Of a stretch of DNA of 64,000 nt, positions 17,027-63,042 are shown in pieces. The position numbers and the translations under genes were made by a program. This stretch comes from Psammoneis japonica (lineage: Eukaryota), in NCBI GenBank assembly GCA_008632985.1, contig QPGO01000119.1, positions 186,001 through 250,000 of the forward strand. The letters are read 5' to 3'. Numbering within the stretch: the first letter of the stretch is position 1; each line of letters starts with the position of its first letter. Under the pieces are notes generated by a model that searched no databases, was not told the DNA's origin, and worked only from the letters and a program-made list of their open reading frames with translations.

Positions 17027-17090
17027 CCCCCTCCCTCCCTCCCTCCCTCCCTCCCNNNNNNNNNNNCCTCCTCCTCCTCCTCTTCCTCCT
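17027..17090. repeat. (CCCT)n/(CCT)n microsatellite flanking a short N gap
   Basis: Seen directly. Confidence 0.9.
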
Positions 17091-26898: not shown

Positions 26899-26971
<73 letters not shown>

Positions 26972-29900: not shown

Positions 29901-31840
29901 TGAACGGTCCTGTCAATGATTTGGACAAGGGTCATTTTGTCAAGACTGTCCGTGAGCCTCATGTCAAGAAAGCAGATGGCACGGTTGCCTGCATCTTTGA
30001 CAACCCACATGAGTTGTTTGCAGCAGACCTTTGCAATGAATGCTCCTCCCACTCAGCAGCCAAGGACAACTCAGCCTGCGACAACATCAAGGTTGATGAT
30101 GTTTGGCTTTCTCAGCTTCTGGTTCTGTCTGGAATCACAAATGCCTGTTTTTCTGCATGAGCACCCATTGGCAATTTCTGCATGAAATTCTACAAAGATG
30201 GTGTTTTGTGCTGGGTTCCCCAAGACTCCTTTGGCCACTCACATCCATGGCACACCTCTGTTTTGGCATGATGTGCAATGCTTTTGAGTGGAAAAAGAAT
30301 GGCATCAAAACCTCATGGCTCGCATGTTCATCATTCTTTTTGGCAATTTTTTGAAAATTCAGTGCACTTGCTGCACAGGATCCAGTGCAAATTCTGGGTG
30401 CTTTAGAAACATCCTGCAATGACCAATTCATCAATGGTGCAAACTGCTTCCATCCACACCCATCAGTCCCCAATGATTTCTTCAGCCCTTGCTGGCCAAT
30501 CAAGACTTGTTTTGCTTTGAGAACTGCATGCTTGTTGCTTCGGTTCATTGAGAGTCCAAATGTGGAGGTGGGTTGTTTGCCACATTAAATTGTGCCTGTC
30601 ATTGCTCCTGCACATTTGCTGCAATTTCTGCTGATTCAGTCTCAAGCATGGGGTGGGGCTGCATTGGGACACATGTTGGACCACAACACTCTCCTGTCTG
30701 TTGTCATGACACATGCCAGAACAGTCTCAAGTGTTTTTCCAGAAAAGTGAGCAAAATCTCTTCAAATGCATGGCACAACATCATGGTGGATGTGCTCTTG
30801 TGATCTGCATCCATGCACTGCAATGGCAATTGGCAGATGGATGGACAGGACTGCACAACAACAGTGGCAGGTCTGTCACTCATCCATCAATCCACTCCAA
30901 ACGCAGAGCAGCAGCCAGCACTCCTTTGCACACAAGCTTTGAACAATGCACACAGTTTTTGATGCTTGGGCACACTGACACAGCACTTGTCCTGCCTGGA
31001 AAATGTTTCAGGACATGTTTGTGCCTGCCCAATGACACATCTCAGACTGGCAGCCAGCAGCAGGCACAGGAGAAGCTCTGAGCAGCTCTGGTCATGGGGG
31101 GGCTTCTGGCAAAAAAAAAGAGAGTGTTGGCACTGCTGATGTCTGAGAGGAGGTGCCAAACATCCCCTTGTGCTGTTGTTCCTCTCAGAGCAGCCCACCA
31201 CCCTCTCATGCAGCATGGCCATAAAAGTTGGCAATGAACAGCTGTGCTGCAACAAGGCCTGGGGGGTTGCACCCAGCGCTGCTGGCTGGCTGGGGAGGAA
31301 ACTTTTTTGGCTTTTTGTCAGCAACAAAGCACAGCAGCCACACAATGCTGTGTGAGAGACAAGCTTGGCTGCTGGCCATTTTTTGTGGGTTTCAGAGTCC
31401 AACAAGCAAGGGAGCAGAGAGAGGGGAGCTTGGGGCCCTGGTGTGCAAGAGAGAAGCACGGACAAAGAAAGAAAAAGAGAGTGCGCTGCACCCCCGCCAG
31501 CTTTTTTTTTGTCAGCCAGTCTGTCTCTAAATGAACCCAACAAGCAGCAGTCAAGCAGCACCACTTTTTATTGAGAAACCCACCTGGCAGCAAAACAAAG
31601 TTGAACTGGCTTTCCCAGCTGCTGTGCTGGGGGTGCCCACATGGAAGTTTTGGGCACCACACTGGATCCTCCCAGCGTGTCTCAGATCATTGCTTTGTTC
31701 CTCTCTCAGACAGGTTGCATTTCTCTTTTTCTTTTTTGTTGCCACTCCACTCCTTCCACTCCTGGTTGTGCCTTTGTGTCAGTGTGCAGTTGCTCTGGTT
31801 GTCAACAACCGCCCTCCTTTGGCAGCTTCTCCTTGGCTGC
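26800..31840. repeat. TpA- and CpG-depleted degenerate block, probably TE-derived; includes repeat copy 3 (~30830-31920)
   Basis: About 5 kb nearly lacking TA and CG. No protein family assignable by eye. Confidence 0.65.
26903..26968. repeat. (CA)33 microsatellite
   Basis: Seen directly. Confidence 0.97.
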
Positions 31841-41693: not shown

Positions 41694-43755
41694 TGTCATA
41701 AACCACTTGGCTGTTGTTTTGTGGGTCACCAAACTGTTAATGAATGCACACACACACACACAAAATGCACATGACAATGCATGTTGCATTCACCTCCCCA
41801 ATTGCACATCACAACATCATTCGTCAAAAACGGCACACAACACAATGAATGCTGACAGCCGTCAATGACATCACTGTGTTTGATCTTTGCTGTGCCATTG
41901 GCATGTGTCATTGTCATCACAGCATGCAGCCCTGCATGCGGCTGTTCTAATTTTTGGAAGTGTTTCTCGAGTGGTGTCTTCTCACCTGCTCTGTGGTGCA
42001 TGCATGGAGTGCACAGATCGAGCGTTTTCTTTGGCATTGTCTCCATTTGTGATTTGCTGTTTTTGCTTTTGGACAAACTTCTAATCAGCAACGTGTTGGA
42101 CATTAAAAATCATGTCTCTCTGTTGAAGACTGATTGTCCTGGTGCAGCTTGCACAGTGGCATGATGTGCACAGAAAGCACAGCAAAGGCTGCTGTGGATG
42201 GCACACCACAGAGTGAACAGATCACCAGCATCCAACGGTGAGAATGTTGTGGGTCAAATGCATGCAGCACATTGCCCAGCACTTGATGTGCACATTCTAC
42301 AGTTGTGCTCGACTGTGGATTTTGTGTGGTTGCAGGCTTGACTTTACAGCTCCACAGCCCTCTTCAACCATGTCTTTAAATCAGTGTCTGATGAGCTCAC
42401 TTCCACAGTCACGTGCAATTGACAATGGCCAAGGATGTCTGCTCTCAACCATGTTTGTTCCAACAGTCCAGCTGCAGTTGTGGATTCCTTGTTTGGAATT
42501 TCCACAACTTCAAACCATCTGGTTGCTGGATCAATCATTGTCAAACATTTCAGGGCTGGGGGTTCTTTGTTCTTTCCCTTGCAATGCACTTTGCATGGTC
42601 CAATGAGATCCACACACAGTCATTCCCATGGCACTGTTTCTGCACACTTGGGGGGGGGGGCAAATGTCCAAATGTCTTCTGTTTCTTTTTGAATTTTTGG
42701 CACATCTCACATTTTGACACACGCATTTTTGCATGTCATCATGCAGGGCAGACCACCACAAGTGTTTTGTGAGATGGTGTTTCTTCTGTTCTGTTTGTGC
42801 CAGGGTGAAAAAGGTGAGTGTGACACCAATCTGTTGTCACTGCCTTTTGCAATGTCTTTGGAGTGATGATTTTGTCCTTGTGACATGTGAGCAACCAGCC
42901 TCACTCACCTCCATGAAGAATCTTTGTGTGGTGTGTTGCGCCCGGCAATTTGGAGAGAATGTCTTTGTCCTGCTTTTGTTCAGTGTCAAGAACTTTGCAC
43001 GTCAACAGAAAGACATTGTCGCTGGATTTTGGTGGCAACATTTCAGCTGGTTCTTCATTGCTGAGGTTTTCCACAGGTTCCACTTTTTTCATGGTGAGTC
43101 TGCTGATTGCATTTGCAACAATGTTGGCCTTGCCCTTGAGGTAAATTGGTTTGGGACTGCACTCTTCCATTGTCAGATGCCAGTGCATGACTCTGTCCAT
43201 TGTGAAGTTTGTGTGTGTGAGATTTTTATGATCCATGTGCACATTCATCTGTTGGCCAAACAGCACGTTCCGGAACTCTTTTAACATCTCCACTGTGAAC
43301 AGCAGTTCTTTTTCTTCCATTTTAGCACAACGCATCTGTGCTCCATTCAGCTTGCGGCTGTGGAAAGCAACAGGCCAACTGTTCTGCATGACAACCACTC
43401 CCAATTGAGAATTGCTCGCATCAGCACACATCTCAAAGGGTTTGTCAAAATTTGGGTGTGACAGTGACATGTCTTTGGAGATGATGCGCTTCACATTTTT
43501 GAAGGCTTTTTCTTCCGTTTTGGTCCAATCCCACTTTGCCTGTGTTGAGGTGAGTCTGGCCAAAGGAGCAACAACGTGAGATTGTTGAGGCCACATGACT
43601 CGACAGCAGTTGATCATGCCGACAAAGCGTTGCAATTCTTTGTGAGTTTTCGGAGTTGTGATCTTGTTCTTTTGGATGAGTTTGATGCTCTGCTGAAGTG
43701 CAAGCCTCACCGTAATCCTGCCAATGTCATTGCCCAGTGCCTGAAGAAATGACAC
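41694..43755 (-). mobile_element. Degenerate Ty3/gypsy LTR retrotransposon remnant (RT C-terminus, RNase H, integrase, PPT and LTR start)
   Basis: FVGMINCCR, FDKPFEMCADAS..QLG, VAFHSRKL, EKELL, VHMDHKNL, KGKANIVANAISRL; integrase DLIGP..LTMIDPATRWFE; purine tract at 41789-41799 followed by TG on the minus strand. Confidence 0.9.
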
Positions 43756-43759
43756 GGGG

Positions 43760-44471
43760 ATCTGTTGCAGTCCGTCCTTTGCTCTGTGACTGCATCAGAC
43801 ATGCTGGGCTCTCCGAAGCTGGCTGGCTAGAAGCATGTTTGCAAGAAGATTGCGCAGCTGCAATGGTGGACAAGGACAATGTCCTTGTGACTTCATCATT
43901 GGATGGTGGAAAGGAAGGGTCTGGAAAAGGGCAAGCTGCTCGAGTCAGTTGAACAGCAATTCACGGTATCGTGCACATTCCGCATCATTGACATGCTCTT
44001 GAGACTTTGCGAAGAACACTGCATGCTGATCCATTGCCACAACAGACACCAGTTTTTGCCAAAAACTCTTGAAAGGTAGATGTCATTGTGGAAAAGCTAG
44101 AGAGGGCATGGGCATTGTTGCCGCCCCTCTTCACGGTGGACGAGGGAGTGAGAAGATTGCTTCAGTTACAAGAAGGCTAAGTTGGCATCGTTGTTGCTAA
44201 AGAGCTGACAGCACGAGGTCTCGACTCACCCCTTTTGACACATGTGATCAACTTTGATTCGCCAACAGATGCTTCGCACTACGCTCATCGCACTGGCCGG
44301 TGCGGGTGAGGTGGGAGACCAGGAGTTGTTGTCATCAACTTGACAACCAGTCCCCAAGAACGCAATGTACCGCAAAAGTTTGCCGATCAACTGGGTGTCA
44401 CCATGCATGCTGTTGAACCTCGAAATGGCAAACTTAACATTGTGGATCCTAGCTCACAAGACATAGACTAG
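43760..44471 (+). pseudogene. DEAD-box RNA helicase C-terminal domain pseudogene
   Basis: [24 protein letters not shown] (motif V) and [10 protein letters not shown] (motif VI, with the last Arg replaced by TGA at 44307). The frame ends at TAG 44471. The 5' part abuts the gypsy remnant. Confidence 0.85.
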
Positions 44472-46098: not shown

Positions 46099-47865
46099 GG
46101 TCGTGTGGTTGTTGTTGTTGCTGTTGTTGGAGCTCTCTTGTCGCTCTATCACTCTAGCTAGAGATCGATGTCTTAAAATTCAACACATCGCGGCAATGAA
46201 GGCAAGCAAGGCGCGGATTACGGTAGCACGTACATTTCGCGCGTACAGCACCCCGTTTCACCACGGTTCAACTTACGTGCGGTGGTATTAGCGTCGAATC
46301 ATATGACTAAAAATATTTCTTGTCAATTACAGACGATATCCCTGCTCATTACCGGCATGCACAGAAACGCGCAGCGAGGTCCTGAGCATTTTCGATGGCA
46401 CAGAACCTTGCCACGGGTTTCTGTGCCATCTACGACAAAGCTGCGTAGATTTGTACCGAAAAAAATCTGAGAACATTTTGGGATTGTTTTGAATTGCAAT
46501 GTTCACATTTAACTCACCTTGAATGTTCGAAAGAGACAATGTTCCAGCTGTTGGTTCAACAAGATGAACAGACACGATGACAGGATTTGAACAGGATTCA
46601 GGTGCGCGCGAAATGTCGCACGCTGTTTAGTTTGCCGCGCACAGTTTTGTGTGCTTTGGTTCCGCGCGTTCGCGCGCGATGCAGTTTGCTTTCGAGCCAC
46701 AAGGCTCACAAGAACAATGACAGTGGCCCGATCATGCCGACTCACACGTCTTTCGGCTCCTGCAACGGTCTCTGAGCGGAGACTCATCTGCTGTTTAGAC
46801 AGCAGCAAGGAGTTGTTGTTTGAATTCTTGCCATTTGCCTTCAATTTCTGTCAGATTGACAGTCTTGCTCATTGTCAACCCATTGAGCAACCGCCATCAT
46901 CGTCGTTGATTTACCAACGATGCCACTTCAATCCTGCGTGGACCTCCGTGTGTGTCCCACACACATCGGCAAGTCTGCGCGCATTCAATGCCAGGGCATC
47001 GGCAGGAAGTTAACGTCACCGTCAAGTCTCCTTGCCGCTGGACATCTGGATTGATTGCACCACCTTTGATCGCTGAAGACACACACTCAACGGTCACATC
47101 CAAGTCTGCCCTTGATCCTCATCCCTTGATGTGCCTGTTCATCGGTTGACGGTCAAGAACCCTGCACATTCAAGGATCTTCGTCGCTGAGGACATGCACA
47201 CACACACACATGTCTTCACGGCCAAGAACCTGCACCCACTCTTCGGACTGTGGTTTTGCCACCACTCCACAAGCACACCGAGTCCATTGCACCTGATCCA
47301 CCCCAGACTGCTGGTGCTCCACAGTTCTGCCAGGTCCACGAGGACGACTGTGAGAGCAAGCAGCCGTGATTGCAGCCTGCGTTGGGGCGAGGGTGCTTTC
47401 CCGCATTTGTTCGTTCGTCCACAGTGCCTGGCGCCTGCATCAACTGGCCAGCCTGATCGGGAAATCCAACCGACATAAAACAAGAATGGTTCGGGGGTCT
47501 TGTCCACCTCTGGTCAGCTTGCCTGCAGGGGTTTGCAACCTGCTGCTCCGCTCGCAAGCAACCCAAAGCGCCGCTGGCTGTGGGTTCGGACGTGCTGGCA
47601 CAACTCTACGGACTGGATGGGAAGTTTAGCACTTGACAACGAATGGGGTGGCACAACCCGGCGACTTCTGATTTTAAGATGGTCCAAGATTTCAAGTCAA
47701 GTCTAGCTCAAGTCACGTCTTTTTCAAGCCAAGTTCCAAGTCAAAACTCCGAGTCAAGATCGCGCTCTAGATTGGTTCCTGTCTTTTGTTTCTACTGCAC
47801 CGTCCTCCGTCATGGTTCTCACGTGACAGCAACAAACCGAAAGCTTCAAATACATTCTAGGCACT

Positions 47866-50412
47866 GTGCTCAATCAAGACGATGACAGCCCTCTTCGTTC
47901 TGCCCTGTCCACCAACGGGATTGAATCGTGCGAGGAATTGTTCACGTTCTTACCCACCCAAATTGACGCCCTCACTTACAGAGACGGTGCCAATGTAGTG
48001 CCTTTGCCACGGACCCACAGAAACCTCCTAGCAGCTTTGATCAGCTTCTACTTTGTCAAAGTTTGCAACGGTGATGATGTGACCAATGAACCCCAGTTGC
48101 TCACACCCGAGGAATTTCGCAACTGCAGCCTTGGTCCGGACTGCTTGACCTCTCTAGCCACTGGCGCAGCACCCTCCACACCTGTGCCGAGTCCCTTGCC
48201 ATCCAAACCAGATGAACCCAGTGCCATTTTGACACCAGCCTTGCACTGTGCCACCACTCAGGTGTCTCCTAGAAGTGGTGTCAGTCGCACCCCGCATGTC
48301 TTGACCAACCCACCTGCAAGCAACCTCGGCCCAGTGCAGGATTGCAGCCCTTGCACAGGCCCGCACTTCGAGACCAGTTGGGACACTCCACCCATGGCTT
48401 CCAAAGCTGCAGTCTTGGCACCCCGCAAACCACGTGCTGCCAACCTCCACGTGTTGACTTCTGTCGCTGTCACCCTTCACAGTCTTCGTTTGGGAAGTGA
48501 TGGAGGTGACAACTTGCTTCTCGTATCTCCTGATGGGGAGCCTCCTTTTCCCGTCATTGAATCTGTTCACAACAGTTCAACCGGTTCATCAGATGGGGAG
48601 TTCAGGACATCCAAGCAGCTTCGTTGTCTTCGGATCCTCCAAGCATCGCACCATGAGACCAGGCCTCCTGATTGGATGCCTCAAGTCTCGTACCTCGAGA
48701 CTGGGCCTCCTGATTGGATGCCTCAAGTCTCGCACCTCGAGACCAGGCCTCCTGATTGGATGCCTCAAGTCTCGCACCTCGAGACCAGGCCTCCTGATTG
48801 GATGCCCCAAGTCTCGCACCTCGAGACCAGGCCTCCTGATTGGATGCCCCAAGTCTCGTACCTCGAGACCAGGCCTCCTGATTGGATGCCTCAAGTCTCG
48901 TACCTCGAGACCAGGCCTCCTGATTGGATGCCCCAAGTCTCGTACCTCGAGACTAGGCCTCCTGATTGGATGCCCCAAGTCTCGTACCTCGAGACTAGGC
49001 CTCCTGATTGGATGCCCCAAGTCTCGCACCTCGAGACCAGGTCTCCTGATTGGATGCCTCAATGGATGCCTCAAGTCTCGTGCCTCGAGACCAGGCCTCC
49101 TGATTGGATGCCCCAAGTCTCGTACCTCGAGACTGGGCCTCCTGATTGGATGCCCCAAGTCTCGTACCTCGAGACTGGGCCTCCTGATTGGATGCCCCAA
49201 GTCTCGCACCTCGAGACCAGGTCTCCTGATTGGATGCCCCAAGTCTCGTACCTCGAGACTGGGCCTCCTGATTGGATGCCCCAAGTCTCGTACCTCGAGA
49301 CCAGGTCTCCTGATTGGATGCCTCAAGTCTCGTACCTCGAGACTGGGCCTCCTGATTGGATGCCCCAAGTCTCGTACCTCGAGACTAGGCCTCCTGATTG
49401 GATGCCCCAAGTCTCGCACCTCGAGACTGGGCCTCCTGATTGGATGCCCCAAGTCTCGCACCTCGAGACCAGGTCTCCTGATTGGATGCCTCAAGTCTCG
49501 TACCTCGAGACTGGGCCTCCTGATGGGATGCCCCAAGTCTCGTACCTCGAGACCAGGCCTCCTGATTGGATGTCCCCAGTCTCGCACCTCGAGACCAGGC
49601 CTCCTGATTGGATGCCTCAAGTCTCGTGCCTCGAGGCTGGGCCCCCTGATTGGATGCCCCAAGTGTCGTACATCGAGACTGGGCCCCCTGATCGGATGCC
49701 CCAAGTCTCGTGCCTTGAGACCAGGCCTCCCAACTGGACTCTCCACGTCTCGTGCCTCAAGACCGGGCCTCCCAATTGGATCCTCCACGTCTCATGCCTC
49801 AAGACTCGGCCTCTGGATTGGATCCCTCAAGTCTTGCGCCACGAGACTCGGCCTCCTGATTGGATCCCCCAAGTCTCACACCTCAAGACTTGGCCTCCTG
49901 ATTGGATCCCCGAAGACTCGTGTCACAACACTGGCAAGTCCTTTTGGATCCCAGAAGTCTTGCAGCACGGGACTGGTTGCCCCAATCAGACATCTGCAGC
50001 CTTGCACCACAAGATGTCTTGCTCCAATCCGATCCCCGAAGGCTTGCACCTTGAGACTCGTTTCTCCAATTGGATCAGTCTCTCAGGAGATGCAGTCGGA
50101 TTGGTGGAACACAAGACCACCGCTTGTGCCTTTGAACTGATGCTTGCTCTGTTCCCCGAGTCGTGCAAACGCCATGCCGCCTGCAATGTTGCCCCACCGT
50201 TCAACATTGTCAACCAGACCAAGCTTTGCTCCTTCCATTGCAAGCGCGGATGTGGAATCCCACAAGATCCCAAGTGTGCCTTGAGCTTTGAAAAGCACAA
50301 CGGCATCTGCAATTGGGGAGACGCAGCTCATCTCAAGATGACCCACTTGGAGAATGCAACGTTGCTCTCGGATCTTGATCCTTTCTTGTCTCCTCATGTT
50401 TTGGTGCTTTGA
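47866..50412 (+). CDS. Element-encoded ORF: gag-like N-terminus fused to 14-aa tandem repeats (ETRPPDWMPQVS[Y/H/C]L)
   Basis: DDDSPLRSAL..GI...EL......IDALTY...PL....L....F...LTPEEF resembles diatom copia gag N-termini. The ORF has no ATG start and is probably mutated. Confidence 0.5.
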   Translation: MLNQDDDSPLRSALSTNGIESCEELFTFLPTQIDALTYRDGANVVPLPRTHRNLLAALISFYFVKVCNGDDVTNEPQLLTPEEFRNCSLGPDCLTSLATGAAPSTPVPSPLPSKPDEPSAILTPALHCATTQVSPRSGVSRTPHVLTNPPASNLGPVQDCSPCTGPHFETSWDTPPMASKAAVLAPRKPRAANLHVLTSVAVTLHSLRLGSDGGDNLLLVSPDGEPPFPVIESVHNSSTGSSDGEFRTSKQLRCLRILQASHHETRPPDWMPQVSYLETGPPDWMPQVSHLETRPPDWMPQVSHLETRPPDWMPQVSHLETRPPDWMPQVSYLETRPPDWMPQVSYLETRPPDWMPQVSYLETRPPDWMPQVSYLETRPPDWMPQVSHLETRSPDWMPQWMPQVSCLETRPPDWMPQVSYLETGPPDWMPQVSYLETGPPDWMPQVSHLETRSPDWMPQVSYLETGPPDWMPQVSYLETRSPDWMPQVSYLETGPPDWMPQVSYLETRPPDWMPQVSHLETGPPDWMPQVSHLETRSPDWMPQVSYLETGPPDGMPQVSYLETRPPDWMSPVSHLETRPPDWMPQVSCLEAGPPDWMPQVSYIETGPPDRMPQVSCLETRPPNWTLHVSCLKTGPPNWILHVSCLKTRPLDWIPQVLRHETRPPDWIPQVSHLKTWPPDWIPEDSCHNTGKSFWIPEVLQHGTGCPNQTSAALHHKMSCSNPIPEGLHLETRFSNWISLSGDAVGLVEHKTTACAFELMLALFPESCKRHAACNVAPPFNIVNQTKLCSFHCKRGCGIPQDPKCALSFEKHNGICNWGDAAHLKMTHLENATLLSDLDPFLSPHVLVL
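48655..50076 (+). repeat. 42-bp tandem array: 25 conserved units (48655-49716, one with a 12-bp duplication) plus ~8 decaying units
   Basis: Unit GAGACYRGGCCTCCTGATTGGATGCCYCAAGTCTCGYRCCTC. Confidence 0.97.
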
Positions 50413-50759
50413 CTCCAAAGTTCTTCAGTCAATCCGAAGTCGAATCTGTTTCTGTGGCTCCTCAAGCAAACTGGGGAGTGACAGGATTTGAGCAGGATTC
50501 AGGTGCGTGCGAAATGTCGCGCGCTGTTTAGTTTGCCGCGCACAGTTTTGTGTGCTTTGGTTCCGCGCGTTCGCGCGCGATGTAGTTTGCTTTCGAGCCA
50601 CAAGGCTCACAAGAATGACAACAGCAGCCCGATTGTGCCGACTTGCACGTCTTTCGGCTCCTGCAACGGTCTCTGAGCGGAGACTCATCTGCTGTTCAGA
50701 CAGCAGCAAGGAGCCATTGTTTGAATTCTTGCCATTTGCCTTCAATTTCTGTCACACGA

Positions 50760-53700
50760 AACCCCGCCGTGTTGCTGCTTGTCGGCACCCTCGGAATGCT
50801 GCAACATTTCTTCCTGATTGTTGGCAACTGAGTTTCTTCAACTTCTGTGCAATTTCAAGCAAACAAGCATTGTGGGATGTTCCTTCGAAGATCAATGATG
50901 CAACGAGCTAATTGTCAGTGCATGATGCACTTGCGATGGCTGCCGAAACACTTCCAGCACAATGGCGAAGGTTTCGGGTTGAGAAAAAAATGTGCAATCT
51001 TCCGTTGCGGTCTTGCCATGTCACAAGTCTGCAAAAGATCTTGGCACCATTTCTACGCTGGTGCTAAAAATTTTGCTCTACAGACACAAATGTTGTGGAT
51101 GAACCGTGGTGGTTTGTTGGTGTGTTTGCCACGTGCGCACTCTAGAAAGCAACGCATTTTGTGGCGCTGTTCAACATTGATTCATTTCAGTGCTTCGTGC
51201 TCTCGTGGATGGGAGAATGAACAAAAAATGCTTGCAAAAGCACAATGACAGAATGTGCTTCGACTCCGTTTGCGTTCGTCACTCGGCAGTTTCCAAGTGT
51301 GTGTGGCCACATGACAGCCTGTCAGAGACAGCAACACTGATGTTGCATGTGTTGTGTTTCTCAGGAATCAGGAAAGAAGTGAGTGTCAATGAATGAGACA
51401 TGCAAAACACACGTTGATTTTTGTTCTTTGTTGCCCGTGTTGGCGATGCAGGTGTCGAAGAGTCTCGATCTTGTTGTCCTTTGGTGTCAGTTTGTCTTCA
51501 TCGCACTTTGAATTCATGATTTCTGAACTGAATTTAAGCAACAACAGCACAGTCCAACAATGCCATTGTCATCACATCTTGCCTCACACATTGTTTGCTT
51601 CTGTTTTCATGCCCAAATGTTGTTCGAAAGTGTTGCTGCACTTGCGCGCACACTGCACTGAGATTCCCTCGGTCGGTGCAACAGATGTTTAGCCAACAGT
51701 GCCAGGTTGTCCAGAGTGATGATGCGGCAGCTTGGACAGCTGATTCGCTGTTGAGGTGACCTCATCGGCACGCAGACAAGCAATCAATCTTCTTGATGAG
51801 GATTTGCTTCTCTGAGTGTTTGGATCCGGACCAGCATGATGCAGTCGACATGGCATGCTGCCGCACTCTGCATGCTTTGTCAGAGCAGCTCTGGTTTCTT
51901 GCACACCATGGCAAGAGGCAAGAGAGAGCAGTGAGTCAGCCGTTTGTTGCCATGGTGGGTGCCAATCAACTTGCTTGCCCACTCATGTGCACCAATGGCT
52001 GCTGCTGCTGCCACCCAGATTGCACAGGCAGGCAGCACAAGAGAGCAGGTGCCATCCAACACCACCAATGACAAGCCCAGAAGTCCTTGCTGGCACAACA
52101 TCAACATCTTTTTGTTGAGCTTTTTTGTGCTTCTATTTGAAGGCTTGGTTCCTCCAAACACTGGTGTGCTGGCATCTCTTGCTTGCACACAGTGTGCTTT
52201 CACCTTTTTTCTCCAGCAGCCTGCAAACAACAAGTGATTGAGAAAAGTTAAAGAAACACAACTGCTGTGGTGTGACACACACATTGCTCAGCAAAGATGT
52301 GGGCAGGTTGAAGCACCAAACCAATGTTGCTGTGCTGCTGCTTTGAAGCATTCTTTGAACACCCAGCTGAGCATGCACAAAAGTGAAGCCAGCCCAGCTG
52401 TTCAGCAAAGAAGCAAGAAAAGTGACAGACAAAGTGCTTTTGCATGCCCCCCCCCGTGAAGAGCTCCTGTTGCTGTTGGAGCTTCACCACTTGCCAGCTG
52501 GTGTGCATTTGGTCTCACCATGATCTCTGAGCCTGCTGCGTGGCTTGCAAAAACACGTTGCCATTGTTGTCAATCACTGTTGCCATGTTGGCCAGGTGCA
52601 GAAGCTAAAAAGTGAACACAACAAGACCTGCAACTCAAACCAAGTTGCAAACACAAACTTGCCACATTGTCCAAAATTGTCGCCAGTGTGCATCACACTG
52701 TGACTTTGTCTGTCTGTCCTGCAAAAACTGACTCTGACCTTGATGCTCCAACACACTTCTTCACACAAGCCATGTCAACTGGTCAACCTCATGCCCATCA
52801 AGCATGGGTGGATGACACTTGGAAACCATGCAACCCAACAACATGTTGGCTGTTCTGCCAATTCCAATGGCCCACATCATCCAACTCTGCTGACAGTGAA
52901 CGATCATTGTCAGGGCAACCCTCCTTCTCACATGCCCAACAAACTTGTTGCATTGCCAGCACTCAATCTGCTTCATCTCACTCCATGCAAAACTTGTGCC
53001 ACCCGGTTTCTTGTTGGTCCTGCAGCAGGTGTGTCCAACACCCATGGTGCCTTTTCAGCTGGATTGGGGTGAGTGTCAACCCCCAATGTGAGCCGCTGAT
53101 GCAGGTCTTTCAAGACTTGCCAGTGTGTTCCTTGGCACCTTCCACTGGCATCGCCACCAATGGCTTGTTCCTTTTTTTGTTCCAGGCGTCATTGACATCC
53201 TTGCTGGGTCCATCTTCTTTTTTGGTGATTTCTTCCGTCCGGGATGATCCTGCCACAGGACGTGTGTTTCCACTCCTGTTTCAACTGAGCTTGCAAACCA
53301 ATTGTGCCAACAATCTTAAAAAAAGTGCTTCCACCTCATCTTGATGAATGAGCGCCAGCTGCTTCCAAGCCTTGACTGCCTTTTCGTTTGCATCTGACAA
53401 GATCGACTTGCCACATTGCCCGCCACAATCGTCGCTCAGTGTGTCTTTGTCTGTGTCTGTCCTGTGAAAACTGCCTCTAACCCCAATGTTCCAACAGGTG
53501 CATGCTGGACCAAGTGGGTCGAGAAGCACACGGCGGATGAAAAAATGAAATGCTGGTCATGTTGCAAGAACAAATCATGTGGGTGACCCTCAAATTGTTC
53601 CACGAAAATGAGTCACGGAGATGATCATAGACAAATTCAGTCGAATGAATCAACCCACGACCAATGTTGATTCGGGCAATGCGTGAGGTCATTCAATGCT
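50760..53700. repeat. TpA-depleted degenerate block
   Basis: TA is rare throughout; CG is also rare at ~51900-53100. Confidence 0.6.
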
Positions 53701-53834
53701 TGCCTCGTGAGCCCTCCTTCATCTTTTCCTTGTCACACGGCACCCGCACATGATCGTAAAATTGTGCCCAGTGACAAGACACTGTTCACAGACATTCTAA
53801 CATCTTAGAATGTCCTGCTGCAAACGATTTTTAA

Positions 53835-55070
53835 TTGAGCCCCGGGTGGTGTGGTTTTCACCACGACGTCCATCCCATTTTTTCTCGTCATGTTTGGTTT
53901 GAGAACAAGTCCAAAAGATCCAAAATGAGGACCATGCGTTGCTTTGTCTCTTGGACGCCAGTGTTGAGTGCCCCATTTGCAAGGGGTGAGTTCTTGTGTG
54001 GCACATCAAAGGCGCCTGGAGAGACAAACGGACATGGAGGTCTTGAACGCGACGAGGTCAACGCACCAAATGGTGCGACATGCACAATTTACGGAGGGAT
54101 CAAGGGATCGTCTCCAGCCACGATTTATGACAAAGTCCAAGTGAGTGGGGGAGCGACACTCATCATCACTGGACAAGTCACCTTTGAAGGAGAGATCACT
54201 TTAAAACGTAGGAGCAGTTTGGTTGTTTCATCTGAAGAAAATGTTTGTCCAATGTTCAAGACGGGCATCAAGGCAAAAAGAACGAGCCAGGTTTCCATTT
54301 CAGCAGAGGGATGCTGCGTTCATGTGGGCAGAAACCTTGAAGTCTGCGAAAGTTCCGGATCCAGTTCCAGTGTCGAGATCCAAGGAGTCCCAGCAGACAC
54401 TGTCACAGTTGACAAGAATTCTGTTCACACTCTCAAGACAGTCAACAACATGTTGAAGAGAGGAAAGTCATTGATCGCATCAAAGAACACTGTGACGGGC
54501 TCCAAGAAAGCTTTCATCAGCATGAACTCCAACACCAAGAGGATTGCCATCAAAGGAAACAAGTTCCACGCCATTGACATTGTTGGCAACGTCGCAACTG
54601 ACTCAATCGTGTTCAGTGGGAATGCGCACAACTCAACGTTAGTTTTTCAAGACAATGATTCAGGCAAGAAAATGAAACTCAAGAACAACGATGGCGCAAA
54701 AGGAAGATCTCTTGACTGTCAAGGGAACGTCGTTGGTGGGAAGTTCATGGTGAAGAGACGGTGCAAAGCTCCAAACCCTCAGAAGCAAGTCGCAGCTTCT
54801 AATTCTTCCCCATCAAGAAGCCCGCTGACGAAGGAATTAGAAACCGAAGGCACAGACCAGAACGGTGAGACAGGCGGTGGTGCCACGGCACGTGCTCTCA
54901 CCCAGAATCCCACGCCTTCGCCAACACCACCGCCAACGACACCCTCAACTCAGGAGCCGACGCCCGAGCCAACCACAAGAGAAACGGCTGAACCAACTCC
55001 ATTCCCGATGCGAGCTGCGACAAACAAGTCGGAGGGAGGTCTTGAGGCACAGACCACCACAAAAAAGTCA
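53835..55070 (+). pseudogene. 5' part of a host gene (beta-helix-like Asn/Gly-rich repeats and PT-rich linker; probably extracellular) interrupted by the LINE
   Basis: The ORF runs ...NPTPSPTPPPTTPSTQEPTPEPT...TTTKKS up to the TSD and continues in frame at 63135. True start uncertain. Confidence 0.7.
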
Positions 55071-55184
55071 AAACAAAACCAAAATTCCATGTTTGCAGTG
55101 CTGCCACGCTTCCACCCTGCAACTCCGGCAACAAGCCAACCCACACCCCCAGCGCACTAAAAGTGCGGCAGGAGCAAACAGTGG

Positions 55185-58100
55185 TTAGCCGAGATCGGCG
55201 TCACCCGAGGGTGACGCCAAGCCAAAATAACTTGCGATGGTTCTGGTGCCTCGTGCAGCCAAACATTTGGCTTCACGCATGCTTGATTTAAAGACTGGTT
55301 TGAACATGGCCAACCAGTTTCGAATCCGGTGAGTGGAGTGTGACAGGTGTTCTTCTGCCGAATCAAGGAGGAGCGCCTTGTCTCTTGCAAGACAATTGTC
55401 TGTACGAGAACAAATGGCCTTGACCTCTGCTTCTGCGTCTCGTCTTTGAGACGACTTCCTCGTTTCCGAATCGTGTCCGTGCACAGCGTCGTTGTGAGCG
55501 TCCCAGAGGTCCCACCACTGCTCCCCACATGAAATTCCCAATGGTTGCAGCCCAATCCAGCCATTTCTGTTGATCTGAGAGAGTCCGACAAATGCCGCTC
55601 GACGAAAGGTGAGAGGTTTGCGTCGCATTCCACTGGACAGAAAAACGGCCATTAAACAACTGACGCCAACCTGTTTCCCCTTGGGAATGAAATGCGGGCA
55701 CGACGCTGTGATGAAATTGTTCTGAGTGCAAAAGCTCGCCTCGAAACCATGCTTCAACAGCCGAAATTATCAAGTCTCGTAAGGAAGGAGACATGTGAAC
55801 ATCATCGCACTTCTTGCGCAATCCTTGCAAAAATTTTCTGTGCCAGGCTTCATTGTGAGGGCAACGGAGAATGTGATCTCTGTCTTCCATGGGGTCCTGA
55901 CAGTGAACAACAACAGTCCGGACGTGTCGGATTGCATCTGTGCACAATCTTGTTGGTGGGCAGAAGATCTTGAACCAGCTTGACGGCACTGACTTTTCGA
56001 CGAATGTTTCGTGACATCAATTTCGAATGAACGTCCCAATCAATCGATGCGCACACTTCGTCGGACCAACTGTGTTTCTCTTTCATGTGCTGAACCAGTG
56101 CAGGACTCGATGCCTGACATCTGACAACCGGCTTGCATTTGGAAGAAACAGTGGCTCCTTGAAGAAGCAGGTTTGCTCGGCAATGAGGCATGCGGGGAGC
56201 AGCAAGAGCATTGCCCGTAAATCGACCTTGGAATTGTCCAGCGAGTCTGTCGGCACGTGTGTTCAACTTCGCCGCTTGAGAGAGAGAGTCAATGGGAAGG
56301 ATGTCATCTTGGTGTCCCTTCACCCAGTGAATCTCGACTGTGGGACACGACAGTTCATCAGTGCGTGCTTCTGACAGCTGTCTCAGGGAATGGAAGACCT
56401 CATTGACAACACCCCAATCCGGAGAGAGAGCATCAGCAATGTGAAAACGCCAGTGGAAGTCTCCTTGGATCTCCTCCTCGTCGGCAGGATGAGGAATCAC
56501 CTGGAAATTCGAGACAGTGCGAATGAGAGCGGAATTGTCGCAATGCAAATCAGCGCCGCTGACCTGTGTAGAACAACAGTCTGACAATCGGATCAGAAAA
56601 CGGAGAAAAGACAGTGGACCGCATGCCTCCGCACGACAAGACGATGGGCGAAAACCGAAAACTGGACCGGCACAATCCACAAGAGGAACCCCGTCGATCG
56701 CAATCGTCCACCCGAACGTGCCTTTGAAATGGAGGACCGAACCGTCGCCAGCTGCTGAAACCTTGTGGGTGACGAGGAGCTCAGCGATTTCAAATGTAGA
56801 CCGATGTAAATGCAATTCTTCGAACAGAGCAGATTCCCACCGAGGAAGAGACCGCAGCATGGCCAAGAAATCATTCGGGACGGGAGGGACTGTCGGCAAG
56901 GACACTGGAGAACCGAATGACTTGATCCGCCACAAACCGGTTGTAGTCGTAACTGCTGGCACAGGGGAAGCGGCTGGGGAAAGATCTGGAACGTTTTCCA
57001 GAGCAGCAAGAGTCTCCGCACAACCTTGGTGCACTGGGAAAATCTCGAAACCCGAATCTCCACGAATGCACAAGTGATCCTCGGAGGATTCGTAATGTGC
57101 GACATGTGTCATGCGCATTTCCGTAGCTGGTGCAACCCATTGACCTAAAGGGTGTCGCAGATCGAGCGAGTCTGGTTTGCAAAACAAGGAACAGGCTCGA
57201 CGCCACTGTTTCCATGCCCGAGCGGATGGACGTTGTTGTTCGATGGGATTCAGAGTGCTGCGACTGCTGAGAAGGAACGATCGGCCGTTCACTTTAAAGG
57301 GATCGAGCGAAAAACCATCTGGAGAGGCAACATCCGACAGAGTCAAAACATTTGGATAAAGACGACAGTGGTTGACCCACTGCATCTCACGATCACTGAA
57401 CACCTGGGATTGAAGTGCAATGTCCATGATGCATTGGTCGTTGTCTCGCTGGAGTGGAAGCACTCCAGCACAATCACAGTCGATGGTGGCATCGATCCGG
57501 GCCAAGAATGAATGCAAGGACATGAACCATTTCGATTCGGAATGAGGGAGCTTGGCATGGACGTCCTGAAGAAAACTCACACCTGTGCCAAGCTGCAACT
57601 GAATCCACAATGCAGCGATTTGCGACAACACCTGAGGTTGCCCAGAGCCCCGCCAGTGGGTGAGAAACTGCAGAACCTGCGCTGCACCCTGTTCCACGTC
57701 TAAAGACCTGAAACCACCGCCTCCCAGGGAATGAGGTCCGAAGAGGACGTCACGTTTCGAGTTCCGATTGCACCCGCATTTGGCAAAAATGGCACGCATG
57801 GCCTTCCTCTGCACTTCGAGCAACTCTTTCTCCTTGAAGTGAGTGTTCGGGAGAACATGCGTGGTTGCAGACAGATGACAAGCAAAATGGTGAGTCCATG
57901 ACTCGTGTCGATCTAAAGGACAAGACCGAAGGAAAAGGGCAATGCCGTCACTCTTTTGTTTCAGAGCCGAGTGCTGGGTCTTTTGAGTCCCCGCTGGAGC
58001 TTTGCAGTGTCCAAGTGTCTTGTGAGAAGAGCATGCGGACAATTGTTTGCTTGACCCGGTCGTGGTGCGGTCTGCAGAAGAGATTTCAATGTCAATGTCC

Positions 58101-61076
58101 TCGTTGTGGGGTCAAAGGTGAGGTTCGCCGTCCTCTGTAAACATCCATTCGACAGCGTGGAAGGAGCATTTGGGTAATTCTAACTCGTGGCCAGCCGCGT
58201 TCAAAAGGTCGCACCACAGTTGATTGTCTTCCTGCATCTTGAAAGCCAAATCGAGGATGCAAGGTTGAGGACTCGAACAAAAATCGTTCACCTGCTTGGA
58301 CGTGTCGTCGACATGTCCTCCATTGAACATCTGCAGCGAGAGGGAGTGATCTGGGGACTCGAAAAATGCACCATGTGCCCGTTGATCGAAGATCTGGAAC
58401 AGACCATTGCAAATTTGGTTCCAGCAAAACGGAGAGTTTCCGCTGCCCTGTCCTGTTCCGTAAATGGGGAAGTCATCAGAGTGAGAACAAGAAGTTAGTG
58501 ACAGGCCCAGCACCATTCGCAACCAGCAGCGAGCCTTGTGAACAGTGGCGTCAGCGACTTGAGTGACTTCTTTGGGCATGCCATTGCTGCGGCTCTCAAT
58601 TGCAACCAGAGCGGGAATGTTCCGATCGCAGCACGATGTGCAGTCATCATCGCTGTGAACAGCGGATTTTCGGGAGGCACGGCCAATCTCGAGCATGAGT
58701 TCTTCAAGGCACACAGGAGTGTTGGCATTTAAGAAGGCACGAGTGCCGCAGATCCCCGAGTTGCACAATCGGCGGTGTTCCATGTTTTGGGCCAGAGTGC
58801 GCCACTTGACGCTCAAGATTAATTGAAAGTCAGCTTTTGCAGATGTGGGTGACACGGAGACGATGCATCTTGTTGTTGCCTGGCTCTTTAAAGATCATCA
58901 CGTTGACAACATCTTGCCAGCGGTGAAAGGAGTGTCCCCAACGAAGGGCACAGTTAAGCAGATTCAACCTGATTTGAGCAAGGGATTGTTGAACTTCATC
59001 GAGGGCCTCACATTCAGGGGCAGGATTGCCTTCGGAATCAGCTGCATCTGAGAACCGATGAGGAGCATGCATTGCTTTCCAATGACCTGGGTGGAGGCCG
59101 GAGCAAATGGACGTGGAGGTGGATTCTTTCCAACGTTATATTTTTCCTTCGAGATCTGATGCAGACAGAAGATTTGGTGCAGAGACTGGGGAACGGCGAC
59201 GCAAGTGGTTGATGAAAAGGGCAGTTGCTTCGTTCAAAGCCAACGTGTCACACTCGCCATCAAGAATGAGATCCGCCACAACAGTGTCACCTTCGTGGCC
59301 TGGGTCCATGGATGACGGAGGCACCGTTGGAGGGGTGCCTTGTGCCTGACTGAAGTGTTTTTGATTGCGTTGACGGAGAGCAGTGGCTGCCTCTTCCGGA
59401 GCGTCAACAGTGGTCCAATCTTGACATTCTTTGGGAGGAACAGAAGGATTGCCGGGAACTTGGACGCTCTGAATGCCTGTGTCCCTCTGAGTGCGGCATG
59501 AGTCAATCTTCCTGAACAGCTTTTTCATCTCTTCTGCCTTGCGGACATTGCGCAAGACAGTTGCCTGTTTGCGTGACTCCTTGGTGCCTTCCAGATCGAG
59601 TGCGGCCATCCTCTCGGAAACTTCCCTTTCGCGGTGTACGACACTGTCAGCCGCTGATCGCTTGCAATCGTCTTGAGCAGCACACAGCACCTCTTGACAA
59701 CCTTGCAAAGTGTCGGGGACAGTGAAGGATCCACTCAGTTTGTCTCGCATTGCTCGAATCTGTGATGCGCAGTCCAATTTTGTCCTCATCATGGATGCGA
59801 GGCGGGAAAAGATGTGCACCCGGTACCTCAGGTCTGAAAGTTCAACCGACCAGTCGGGTTCGCAATGAATTCGGCATTTCTTGGCAGCGGAAAGAGAGAA
59901 CTGCAGGAGATCACGGTCCAACCGTTCAGCCAGAGCATGATCTGGAGCGTCAAGTTCCAGCAGCTGGAAAGAGCGTTGCAATGCCGAACGACTCTGAATC
60001 ATTGGGCCGATTGCCTGTAGACAAGAGGTGAGCTGTGGTTTAGACGTAGCCTGAATGTCCCTGAAGGATGCCTTGGGTAAATCGACAGTCGGGTTGCCGA
60101 AAAGAGCTGCGGTGTCAAAGTCCACGAAGTGAGCACGATGATCAGAAGTGACTCGACATCCAAAGGCTTCACATCCACCGAAGCGAGCTGCAGCAAGAGC
60201 GCCAGGAGAGGCCAGTGCGCAGTCAAGACGCCGGGAACCTCTGGCACATGTGGAGAACTCAGTGTCGCCCATGATGTTAAACAGGACGTCAGACAAATTG
60301 AAGCGCTGGGCAACGGCAGCCAAAGAGTCAGTGTCACAGGTGAAATCAGTGTTAAAGTCCCCAAAAACAATGACTTCTCAATTGGAATCCGCCAGAAAAT
60401 CCTGCAAGACTCGGGACAAGTCTGCACAAAATGCCTTCCTGGGATCGAGTGACGGCGCCCCAATTGNCCGGAGGAGGGCCAATTGTTGAGCACATGCTGT
60501 TGTCTTCCCTGGGTGTTGTTGGTTCTTAGCGCAAACTCGACAGCAAGAGACAAACACAACTTGGCGTCCATTCCCACCGTCGAAGACTTGAATTGACCAC
60601 CTGCCGAGCGGGTCGGATTCTTGAGTCCGGAAGCAAGCAGAAATCGAATTACATGACAACAAGGCCATTCCACCCGGTTTGCATTGCATTGCAAAGGTGG
60701 TGGAACTGCTTGAAAAGGCAGACCGCCCATGATGTAAAGACTTGGAAACGGCAGATCTGCACATGGATGAAATGTCGAATTGGGTGGTGTCGAGGCACAC
60801 CTCCGAGATGCCAATGACATCGGCTTGAATTTCGGAGGCGAGTTGACAGCACTTGTTCACATCACCGCCACGCTTGTCGAATTTACAACCGTTGGCATTG
60901 AAGGCGTAAAGGCGCGCATGGTGAGAAAGCTTGGGCCGGAGTTCGTCGCCCACAGGTGCGTTGGTCTTCAGTCGAGAAAAATCTATCCGACGATCTGTGG
61001 GAGGGTGGCAACTGCGTCCGTCTAGGACATTCTGCCAAGCGAGAGCTGGATCTTCAGCAGAAGGCGAATGACTCAT
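55185..61076 (-). pseudogene. LINE ORF2 (AP endonuclease, reverse transcriptase, RNase H, C-terminal Cys/His motif), disrupted
   Basis: EN: FNANG, DVIGISE, KPGG, DPLGRW, SDHR. RT: FKEPGN..HRLRV.H, GTGQGSGNSP, HVDD. RNase H: GDGSV, RAEA.G, CDN, WVKGHQD, N..ADRLA. Also EDRDHILRC. Confidence 0.9.
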
Positions 61077-61125
61077 TGTTGGGCCATGCTCCTCCGAAGA
61101 GAAGACTGAGGCTTAGAGCACTGCA

Positions 61126-63042
61126 TTAACTTGGTGTTGGCTTGGAAGGAAAAACTCCGGCATCGTGAAGTCCGACGGAAAATTGATGTTGGCGCAAGTG
61201 GTGAGTGGGGCGAGGAAGCAACATCAGGAGGTCGCCTGATTTCTTGAGGGGGTGGAGGCGGTGAAGTCCAACCCCTGCCTGAAAATCCGTCTCCCGTTCT
61301 TTGTGGTCGCCAGGGCGTTCAGGAGTTTCCATGTTGTTGGGGCGTTTTCTGGCTGAACTCTGAACAGGTTGGTTTGCTTGAAGCAGTTGAACAATTTGGT
61401 TCATTTGTTCCTGCACTGCAGCCAACTGTTGGGAATGCTGAAACTGCATGGTGGCCATGTCCTGGGAGTGTTGTTTGGTGAAGGTGTTGTGCAAAGCTTC
61501 CACATCCTGAGAATGCTGTCGGCGGAGATCTGCCAGAGCCGCATCGTTCTTCTGTTGCATTTGTGACAGGGTCTGTTGCACTTCCGCCATCTGTGCTGAC
61601 GTGAGGGAAGAACTTGTAGACGACTGAGTCGCTTGAGCGCACAAATGCGGAGGGGACGAGATTCCTGGGTGTCCAGAACATCCGCAAGGAGTTGCCTGGA
61701 AGGAGGGCCTGGGGGCGAAGATTTGCGGAGTGACTGACGGGCTTGGAGAGTGGCCTCGACCAGGGGTGCTGCCACGACCATGGCCTCTGCCCGCGAACTG
61801 TGCCGGAGGAGGAGGACGGTTTGACCTCGAGGCCTGGGTGTCCGTCAATGGAGATACGTCTGAGAAGGTTGGGGACTCCAAACTGCGGATGCTCGCAGAC
61901 ACTGTGGATTTGCTGGTGTCGGACTGCTCGTCAAGCACACCAGACACGTGAGGTTGATCGGGAAACGGAGGAGACGGCCAAGATTCTTTGGGGACATTTG
62001 GAATTTGATCCATGATGCATGTGGAGATGCCAGCACGGGAAGCTTTGAAATCCGTACGTTTGACCAACACATTGTACCGACCAGGGGTGGCACTAGACTT
62101 GCAGATCTCTTTCACTCCGGAGATGGCCCTGATGTGGTTTTCCAAATAAAACATCACATCCGGGGAGGTGCACAACAGCGGAACCACGCAAGCATCATGA
62201 TTGCGACGAGCTTGGAGTTTGACAGCGTTATAGAAGGCGAGTGGCGACATGCACCGTGTCTTTGCCACAACAATGTGTGTCGGCAGCTTGTTGGAGGCGT
62301 GCAGCAAGGTTTTTCCTGCAGTGCGGCAATCGTCTTGTTGCACTTCGATGGCACAAGTGACGGTGCGAAGGGGAGGAGCCAATTGATCGTCATCGGCACG
62401 AATGGAGGTAGGTGCGAGACGAAATTTCGGCATCTTGGACTTGAATTCGCCCAGATCTTTTGCAAACAACTTGGTAGCTTCGTCGATCGGAGTGTGCTTG
62501 GATGGGGCAGCGACGCAACATGCCGGAGTCGCCGTGTCGATCACTGGCTCATTCCAGCAGTGGCGCTTCAAACCCATGTTGTTTGAGTCTAAAATGCTCT
62601 GAATATGAGGATGAGAACAGATCTCTCGAAGGGGGACTTTGGTCAAAATACGGTGGCACAGGCGGTGGACGACAGGGCGTTTTTCTCCACTGCGAGTCGC
62701 AGAAATCGTGAAGTGACGTTCGTGCTGAAGGGTTGCAATCCATTCTGCAATGTTGACATTGGTGATCTGGTTGTTGTGGTTGTCCAGGATCTGAACATCG
62801 TTGTGATACGTGAATAGGATTTGTTGCAAAACTTGAAGATGAGCGGTGGTGAGGGTCATCGGCTTGCACGTCGCCTCCGGGCCACGAACATCAAAGCGTG
62901 GGGTGATCTCCACATAGGGAGGCTCTTTCGGTTTAGAAGAAGGTTTGTTGGATGCGTGATCAACAGTGATATCGTCCGCCATATTGATATCGTTGTTATC
63001 GTTGGGGGTATGGCTACCGTCAGCGACGGAACGAGACGCCAT
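61126..63042 (-). CDS. LINE ORF1 (Pro/Ser-rich region and Gln-rich coiled coil)
   Basis: 638-aa ORF directly upstream of the endonuclease frame, starting ~77 bp inside the 5' TSD. Confidence 0.8.
   Translation of the reverse strand: MASRSVADGSHTPNDNNDINMADDITVDHASNKPSSKPKEPPYVEITPRFDVRGPEATCKPMTLTTAHLQVLQQILFTYHNDVQILDNHNNQITNVNIAEWIATLQHERHFTISATRSGEKRPVVHRLCHRILTKVPLREICSHPHIQSILDSNNMGLKRHCWNEPVIDTATPACCVAAPSKHTPIDEATKLFAKDLGEFKSKMPKFRLAPTSIRADDDQLAPPLRTVTCAIEVQQDDCRTAGKTLLHASNKLPTHIVVAKTRCMSPLAFYNAVKLQARRNHDACVVPLLCTSPDVMFYLENHIRAISGVKEICKSSATPGRYNVLVKRTDFKASRAGISTCIMDQIPNVPKESWPSPPFPDQPHVSGVLDEQSDTSKSTVSASIRSLESPTFSDVSPLTDTQASRSNRPPPPAQFAGRGHGRGSTPGRGHSPSPSVTPQIFAPRPSFQATPCGCSGHPGISSPPHLCAQATQSSTSSSLTSAQMAEVQQTLSQMQQKNDAALADLRRQHSQDVEALHNTFTKQHSQDMATMQFQHSQQLAAVQEQMNQIVQLLQANQPVQSSARKRPNNMETPERPGDHKERETDFQAGVGLHRLHPLKKSGDLLMLLPRPTHHLRQHQFSVGLHDAGVFPSKPTPS

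Follow-up and report, generated by a model that had tools for sequence, protein, structure and literature searches.

A 42-bp tandem array in Psammoneis japonica DNA as a probable record of TpA-specific mutation

What would make two dinucleotide steps of a short tandem repeat, and little else within it, vary among TA, CA and TG whilst CG stays away? The question is raised by an array in the 64,000-nucleotide stretch of Psammoneis japonica DNA analysed here (the window: assembly GCA_008632985.1, contig QPGO01000119.1, positions 186,001 to 250,000, forward strand). Its core, as delimited by unit alignment and Tandem Repeats Finder (TRF), spans 48655..49716 on the + strand (1062 bp) and consists of 25 head-to-tail 42-bp units that read as 14 amino acids in the + frame (ETRPPDWMPQVSYL); TRF gives a period of 42, plus a higher-order period of 126. 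We favour, with a probability of roughly 0.6, the reading that this core is the young, homogenised part of an older in-frame minisatellite recording TpA-specific mutation of TA to CA or TG, and that the domain of a diatom-like genome in which it sits is derived from repeats and stripped of TA.

The pattern itself is simple. Columns 37-38 of the unit, within the penultimate codon of the + frame, read TA in 14 core units, CA in 8 and TG in 3; columns 6-7, at the ACY-RGG junction, read CA in 13, TG in 9 and TA in 3; and CG occurs at neither site in any of the 25. By contrast, the CpGs that serve as controls within the same units are kept, TCG in 25/25 and CTC-GAG in 24/25, or 49/50 together. All of this bears out what an earlier note had read off the sequence, namely the TAC, CAC and TGC codon counts (14, 8 and 3), the three junction states, the lack of CG at both sites (0/25 each) and the preservation of the adjacent CpGs; CG is found at these sites solely in decayed units beyond the range that the note covered. 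Beyond the focal sites, common variation is limited to column 10, with C in 21 units and T in 4, and column 27, with C in 17 and T in 8; in all, 4/4 focal columns are polymorphic against 2/38 others. Both steps capable of being TpA vary on both of their columns, as a process with TA as its sole target would have it, columns 10 and 27 being the exception. G in column 7 appears solely alongside T in column 6 (Fisher p = 1e-4), whilst columns 37-38 show no significant association of this kind (p = 0.53). Two complete pyrimidine-purine (Y-R) steps would turn up among six random polymorphic columns with P = 0.0037, and two that both have CG as the missing state with P ~2e-4; both values are post hoc, and the p-values overstate independence because the units are duplicates of each other.

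Two sets of steps inside the unit act as negative controls. At the four other CpA/TpG steps, TA is seen in 0/100 cases, against 17/50 at the focal sites (p = 9e-10). The other CpGs have lost 1/50, against the 50/50 that an origin of the focal sites from CG would demand (p = 1e-27); since 49/50 are intact, CpG decay is an unlikely source of the focal variation in the core, and synonymous changes were possible at those CpGs (TCG>TCA, CTC>CTT).

Which state, then, came first? A haplotype network on the six variable columns contains 14 haplotypes joined by 18 one-step edges, and its cycle rank of 5 makes recurrent change or recombination inescapable. The double-TA haplotype TA-C-C-TA, carried by a single unit (unit 8, 48949..48990, +) and our candidate root, reaches 14/14 haplotypes via existing ones through focal TA loss only, whereas a model restricted to TA gain reaches at most 8/14 from whichever root. 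It also comes close to being the most central haplotype: its mean distance to the units is 1.80 steps, and that of the best is 1.76. At columns 37-38, TA is the majority on every background set by columns 6-7, 10 and 27, and on every one of these it is accompanied by CA and/or TG; as judged from the aligned units, the root state there is likely to be TA. At columns 6-7, change may likewise have run from TA to CA or TG. The network did not come out rooted on CG, CA or TG with TA as a derived minority, the outcome that the earlier note had singled out as fatal to its view. The proposal that TA is the hub stands in so far as TA connects the states at both sites, but TA is the middle node by construction, because the states are limited to CA, TA and TG, and a TA root is likely only at columns 37-38.

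The order of events can be approached through a four-unit block that is present three times on the + strand, as units 7-10 (48907..49086), 11-14 (49087..49254) and 17-20 (49339..49506). The three copies differ by six changes in focal columns, one other substitution and a 12-bp internal duplication (TGGATGCCTCAA, 49063..49074, +) within unit 10 (49033-49086), a result with P = 5e-6 under a uniform-mutation model. Their non-focal columns are identical, barring column 27 of unit 14 and that duplication, and the differences between units 3-5 and units 6-8 are confined to focal sites. One homologous position reads CA, CA and TG across the three copies, for which a TA or CG intermediate is needed. 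Some non-TA states are common to all three blocks, namely the CA that position 3 has at columns 37-38 and the CA that position 4 has at columns 6-7, and others differ between them, so that changes took place both before and after block duplication. This is consistent with an overlap between mutagenesis and the expansion or homogenisation of the array, the concurrence that had been suggested for it: the mixture of shared and differing non-TA states supports the idea, but gene conversion gives the same picture, and the timing of mutation relative to expansion is something that we infer.

The surroundings of the array tell a similar story of TA loss. TA is scarce from ~46500 on; at the observed/expected ratio (o/e) of 0.57 of ordinary bins, the 384-bp left flank (48271..48654) has 1 TA where ~11 are expected and the 812-bp right flank (49717..50528) has 0 where ~25 are expected, whilst the core array holds 17 against ~25. 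The sole TA of the left flank (48524) falls within 48516-48545 (TCTCGTATCTCCTGATGGGG), a piece upstream of the array that is similar to parts of the 42-bp unit, and stands in TCGTAT, again a TCGTAY context. A partial decayed unit with 22/42 matches precedes the core (48613..48654, +), and eight progressively decayed units, 26-33, follow it (49717..50052, +), with 0 TA and with CpG kept in 4/16. Because CpG is kept in 49/50 cases in the core against 4/16 in those units, the core is far younger than its edges, or was homogenised later than they were. If a double-TA founder is assumed, the core has lost 33/50 TA sites against 1/50 CpG sites.

Depletion of TA is not a property of the array's immediate neighbourhood alone. 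The window, with its long intronless frames, a GC content near 0.48 and retroelement frames, has a eukaryotic, diatom-like look, and in its repeat DNA TA is depleted whilst TG+CA stands at an o/e of 1.4-2.0. Sharply bounded blocks reach a TA o/e of 0.00-0.10 and a TG+CA o/e of 1.8-2.0 at a GC content of 0.5-0.59, and adjoin ordinary bins whose TA o/e averages 0.57; TpA depletion and CpA+TpG enrichment are, in other words, confined to regions. Judged by read depth, the depleted stretch surrounding the array is repeat-derived. The TA-stripped blocks differ in their CpG content: those at 1001-4000, 14001-18000, 22001-24000, 27001-31000, 42001-44000 and 52001-53000 are also CpG-poor (CG o/e 0.07-0.43, mostly <=0.2), and those at 50001-52000 and 53001-62000 have mostly kept CpG (CG o/e 0.6-0.9).

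A 276-bp repeat, present in two direct copies at 46578..46853 and 50479..50754 (both +), provides an independent comparison. Its first copy has the ends TGACAG...CTGTCA and very high read depth. Reading the pair as long terminal repeats (LTRs) was rejected in view of the inverted ends (12/14, by eye) and the very high depth, which suggests instead two copies of an abundant family resembling miniature inverted-repeat transposable elements (MITE-like). Of the 276 bases, 18 differ between the copies: six CA/TG swaps take up 12 of these, and there are 2 TA/CA pairs in addition; shuffling gives a mean of 0.2 such swaps, and 0/20,000 shuffles reached six (P < 5e-5). Set against 20 CpGs common to both copies there are 2 CpG-type differences, and these, together with the swaps, mean that TA-type loss far exceeds CpG loss in this pair. 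The imbalance between TA and CpG loss in the core is the same.

Sequencing reads extend the comparison to the family as a whole. Four runs from one sample cover parts of 46500-50800, the best of them with 0.47 of the sampled words, and the segment was also assembled in three very small runs. Over the frame that contains the array, contigs fall into a high-depth class (~2100-3400) and many minor or junction contigs (33-45); among the contigs of the four runs none spans the array, whose unit states are known from the assembly alone. The abundant contigs over 49682-50367 are just 1-7 letters off the window, so the TA-free right flank is common to the family majority, and the contrast between array and flank is partly a family property, not one of this copy alone. 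That the array keeps more TA than the rest of the element, as the earlier note had it, is accordingly correct in number (17, compared with the 1 and 0 of the left and right flanks), but in part as a trait of the family. Among the differences listed for reads of the flanking high-copy family, TA lies opposite a window TG at 13/13 G>A places and opposite a window CA at 9/17 C>T places; corresponding sites of this family thus vary among TA, CA and TG. Three positions, 48212, 48312 and 50245, are A, A and C in the window but G, G and T in the high-depth contigs; either the family majority departs from this copy there, or the assemblies differ. Copies also vary by an indel: contigs from two small runs have 12 bp more than the window at ~50090-50095, the extra letters being TGCAGCTGAGCT or CTGAGCTTGCAA.

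How could such a record have been written? A founder unit would have carried two TpA steps, ACTAGG and TCGTACC, exposed to a TpA-specific A:T>G:C process that turned TA into TG when A>G struck the top strand, or into CA when it struck the bottom strand. CG would never arise by this route, because a site that has become CA or TG ceases to be a target. Duplication of units and blocks by unequal exchange or slippage, including that of the 4-unit block, would then have copied TA-bearing and converted units alike. It is because duplication multiplied TA-bearing units that 17 TA would be left in the array, as against almost none in the older flanks. By analogy, the enzyme behind the process could be an ADAT2-like deaminase.

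Are all TA steps equally exposed? Flanking-base context was analysed in the window without the array, that is, in 61 depleted bins with 129 TA and 44 ordinary bins with 894 TA. Y-TA-R makes up 63% of TA in depleted bins against 16% in ordinary ones (p = 4e-27), and R-TA-Y 5% against 30% (p = 5e-11), with estimated survival of ~0.40 for the former and 0.019 for the latter; per strand, survival follows the order TAA > TAG > TAC > TAT. Inside the susceptible classes, TA beside a CpG survives ~5-6 times better, and CpG-adjacent R-TA-Y reaches ~6% (4 vs 48; odds ratio 6, p = 0.025). When the two bases on the 3' side are taken into account, the survival indices are 0.039 for TACC and 0.113 for TACG, against 0.103 for TAGG and 0.042 for TAGT. 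The use of a simple Y-TA-R/R-TA-Y rule as an argument against columns 6-7 ever having been TA was dropped, the two-3'-base indices being similar at both sites, and for that reason we do not press the contrast between GTAC and CTAG in the array either. CpG adjacency as the full cause of GTAC retention was likewise rejected, at ~6% elsewhere against 56% in the array; retention in TCGTACC is far higher than anything in the flanks.

The secondary structure of the unit adds a further element. A 7-bp inverted repeat, AGTCTCG / CGAGACT, encloses the loop TACCT at each unit junction (folded over 48907-48990), which puts the TA of columns 37-38 inside the hairpin loop and in touch with a CpG, whilst column 6 closes the last stem pair only as T. 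The hairpin is in the centroid fold but absent from the minimum-free-energy structure, and the folding energy of the 84-nt stretch has a z-score of -4.05, with 0/200 shuffles folding as well. Perhaps CpG contact and the predicted hairpin loop are both relevant to the retention of TCGTACC, although this is speculative.

Several observations weigh against the TpA-specific reading and have to be taken together. Columns 6-7 have TA in only 3/25 units and the first decayed unit has CA there; this site could equally well have started from CA or TG, with TA a transient state. CG does occur at columns 6-7 of decayed unit 27 (49764) and at columns 37-38 of decayed unit 28 (49837); arriving at CG from TA takes two hits, and a CG ancestor of the old array is still conceivable. 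Columns 10 and 27 vary between C and T without any TpA context, and the CpA/TpG control would be weaker if the frame were under selection, as 2/4 of the changes concerned would make stop codons. Short gene conversion, seen only at polymorphic columns, could mimic fresh mutation, and under a draw by column heterozygosity the placing of 6/7 block differences at focal columns has P = 0.079. Depth points to an element family of ~50-85 copies, and in a multi-copy family the per-unit states of the assembly are possibly mosaic. TA retention in the array is 56% for GTAC and 12% for CTAG, though R-TA-Y survives worst elsewhere (~2%); had both sites started as TA in every unit and been equally exposed, amplification drift or local protection would be needed to arrive at these figures. 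Two kinds of further structure that were looked for were rejected: a positional gradient of TA across the array (9 TA in units 1-12 vs 8 in units 13-25) and strand-coordinated clusters of outcomes (16 runs vs 16.3 expected).

The alternative that fares best holds that the three states arose a few times long ago, possibly via a TA-erasing process, and were later only shuffled and multiplied, in which case the array would record a history of amplification and not of ongoing mutation. Just four mutational events are strictly needed; the network is reticulate, the block differences fall on columns that were already polymorphic and are compatible with conversion at the P value above, and columns 10 and 27 mark unit lineages in an array that does contain higher-order blocks. 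Yet the presence of TA with CA and/or TG on every background at columns 37-38 counts against this history, as does the polymorphism of all four focal columns against two of the 38 others, and the TA:CpG loss ratio equals that of the independent 276-bp pair. We consider this history, and the consequence that it has for what the array records, unlikely if far from negligible.

Could the array instead be a chimera of copies, produced by consensus or polishing, with states that exist in the family and an unreliable assignment of these to units? The gulf in depth between abundant and minor contigs, the assembly of the segment in three tiny runs, the modest word coverage of the best run and the lack of a contig across the array all leave room for this. 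On the other hand, the variation is restricted to few columns, the higher-order blocks are clean, there is no indel noise except the 12-bp duplication, and a chimera would not produce the rule that CG is absent; we regard the possibility as distinctly improbable.

A third explanation makes CG the hub, with deamination of 5-methylcytosine leading to TG and CA and a further C>T step to TA. Such deamination resembles the process that we favour in turning a Y-R step into TG and CA, and it does operate in some blocks of the window (CG o/e 0.07-0.2) and in the decayed units, where CG is present at each focal site in one unit and the decay of CpGs is general (4/16 kept). In the core, however, no comparable decay of all CpGs is found: the 49/50 that are intact, despite the synonymous changes available to them, sit in the same units as TA, the control steps show 0/100 changes of CA or TG to TA, and gain of TA alone explains at most 8/14 haplotypes. 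As the source of the core pattern, CpG decay is very improbable.

Nor is there much to be said for a sink at TA, whether by ordinary C>T change or by something like the repeat-induced point mutation (RIP) of ascomycete fungi, whose C>T changes, mostly at CpA, give rise to TpA and leave the DNA AT-rich. The logic of a dinucleotide-specific transition mutator, directed at repeats or foreign DNA and able to disable repeats with no need for stop codons elsewhere, is shared, transitions do dominate here, and the pairs of TA with CA or TG in duplicated blocks could, on their own, be read either way. The chemistry, however, is the opposite: TpA is destroyed and not made by C>T at CpA/TpG, the window repeats are TA-depleted with TG+CA in excess and are not AT-rich (GC 0.5-0.59), the control CA/TG steps are unchanged, and the co-occurrence of CA and TG at one site is unattainable by TA gain, so that we hold this explanation to be barely tenable.

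The array lies in frame within an 861-codon stop-to-stop frame (47827..50412, +), which is putatively coding at most. It has no ATG near its start; a Pfam search of four frames returned no family for it; neither its N-terminal 280 residues nor the array peptide brought up a homologue in protein searches at 'near' lengths only; the best ESM Atlas score was 0.87, without a family or a useful neighbour; a metagenome scan found neither a match to the unit pattern nor relatives of the N-terminal part; and no RNA run was among the sequencing runs matching the segment. Two further frames are open over the whole array and the remaining opposite-strand frames over parts of it; long open frames are expected here by chance, because TAA and TAG have been erased. 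Past the core, the 227 amino acids of the frame include 0 Tyr, 16 His and 13 Cys. Diversifying selection on a repeat protein, at its Tyr/His/Cys and Arg/Gly positions, would account for an array kept in frame, but it is the least credible of the explanations considered, given that the commonest change at columns 6-7 (ACT>ACC) is synonymous and that the frame has neither homologue, Pfam family nor nearby ATG and is open as chance would have it.

How does TpA-specific mutation, as we read it from the array, compare with what has been seen elsewhere? In the chlorarachniophyte Bigelowiella natans, TpA>TpG/CpA hypermutation affects integrated giant-virus and virophage DNA; in two hypermutable regions, 230/231 de novo mutations were A>G or T>C, all on TpA, at a rate ~1000-fold above background and in only some lines, and adenine deamination by an ADAT2-like enzyme was proposed (Mettrop et al., bioRxiv 10.64898/2026.01.13.699255). 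Both cases share TpA-restricted changes with TpG and CpA as the products, or here the probable products, confinement to regions of foreign or repeat type (silent foreign DNA in B. natans) and clustered TpA depletion with CpA+TpG enrichment. They differ in that the B. natans mutations come from mutation-accumulation lines, whereas ours are read from the standing sequence of a diatom-like genome; in that erasure is deeper here (block TA o/e 0.00-0.10, against 0.45 in the B. natans giant-virus region); and in that some blocks of the window are also CpG-depleted. The preprint names RIP as a comparison as well, and has 0 occurrences of diatoms, tandem arrays or flanking-base context (bioRxiv 10.64898/2026.01.13.699255). 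Among the papers listed by a literature search on TpA depletion in diatom transposable elements, none was relevant by title or abstract start.

Two other known systems bear on the array. Higher-order tandem repeats, such as centromeric satellites and coding minisatellites, evolve by unequal exchange and conversion, and their features are present here in the homogenised core, the diverged and decayed edges, the three copies of a 4-unit block and the in-frame 42-bp period; unlike them, the array has its variation focused on two TpA steps and not spread unit-wide. Adenosine deaminases offer a likeness in substrate: TadA and ADAT act on U33-A34 of tRNA and ADAR prefers a 5' U, and the process read here has a preceding T and a preference in the following base, although an enzymatic link on these grounds would be one of analogy.

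Probably, then, the array is a record, with internal controls, of a TpA-specific process of a known kind, and not a new phenomenon; it is young compared with its flanks. A mutator of foreign or repeated DNA that turns TpA into TpG and CpA has been measured to date in a single alga, in a 2026 preprint, and the array displays the same signature in unusually clean form in a diatom-like genome. Its units carry their own negative controls, in the shape of two CpGs and four CpA/TpG steps, and its decayed edges act as a relative clock; what it adds is this internal control and an argument about timing. Moreover, it is a short, amplifiable locus of ~1.3 kb, in which fresh TA>CA/TG events could be sought between clonal lines or strains and where the effects of flanking bases, neighbouring CpGs and the hairpin on the process could be tested. 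A bolder version, in which a TpA-specific mutator is still at work in a diatom lineage, at tens of times the rate of CpG decay, and has its live reporter in the array, seems to us doubtful. Were it true, the 56% retention in the hairpin loop against 12% in ACTAGG at the stem foot would amount to a structural or methylation-dependent substrate rule, and such a rule would be a first handle on the mechanism of the enzyme.

Two observations lie further from the array. Pfam gave no match for the frame at 55850-58111; in the frame next to it, 58112-58894 on the - strand, which resembles a reverse transcriptase, the motif reads GGHVDD. Reverse transcriptases usually carry Y/FxDD, and GGHVDD would fit a TAY>CAY change in a TA-stripped non-LTR element at ~55.8-63 kb. 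Finally, a perfect (CA)33 microsatellite occupies 26903-26968.

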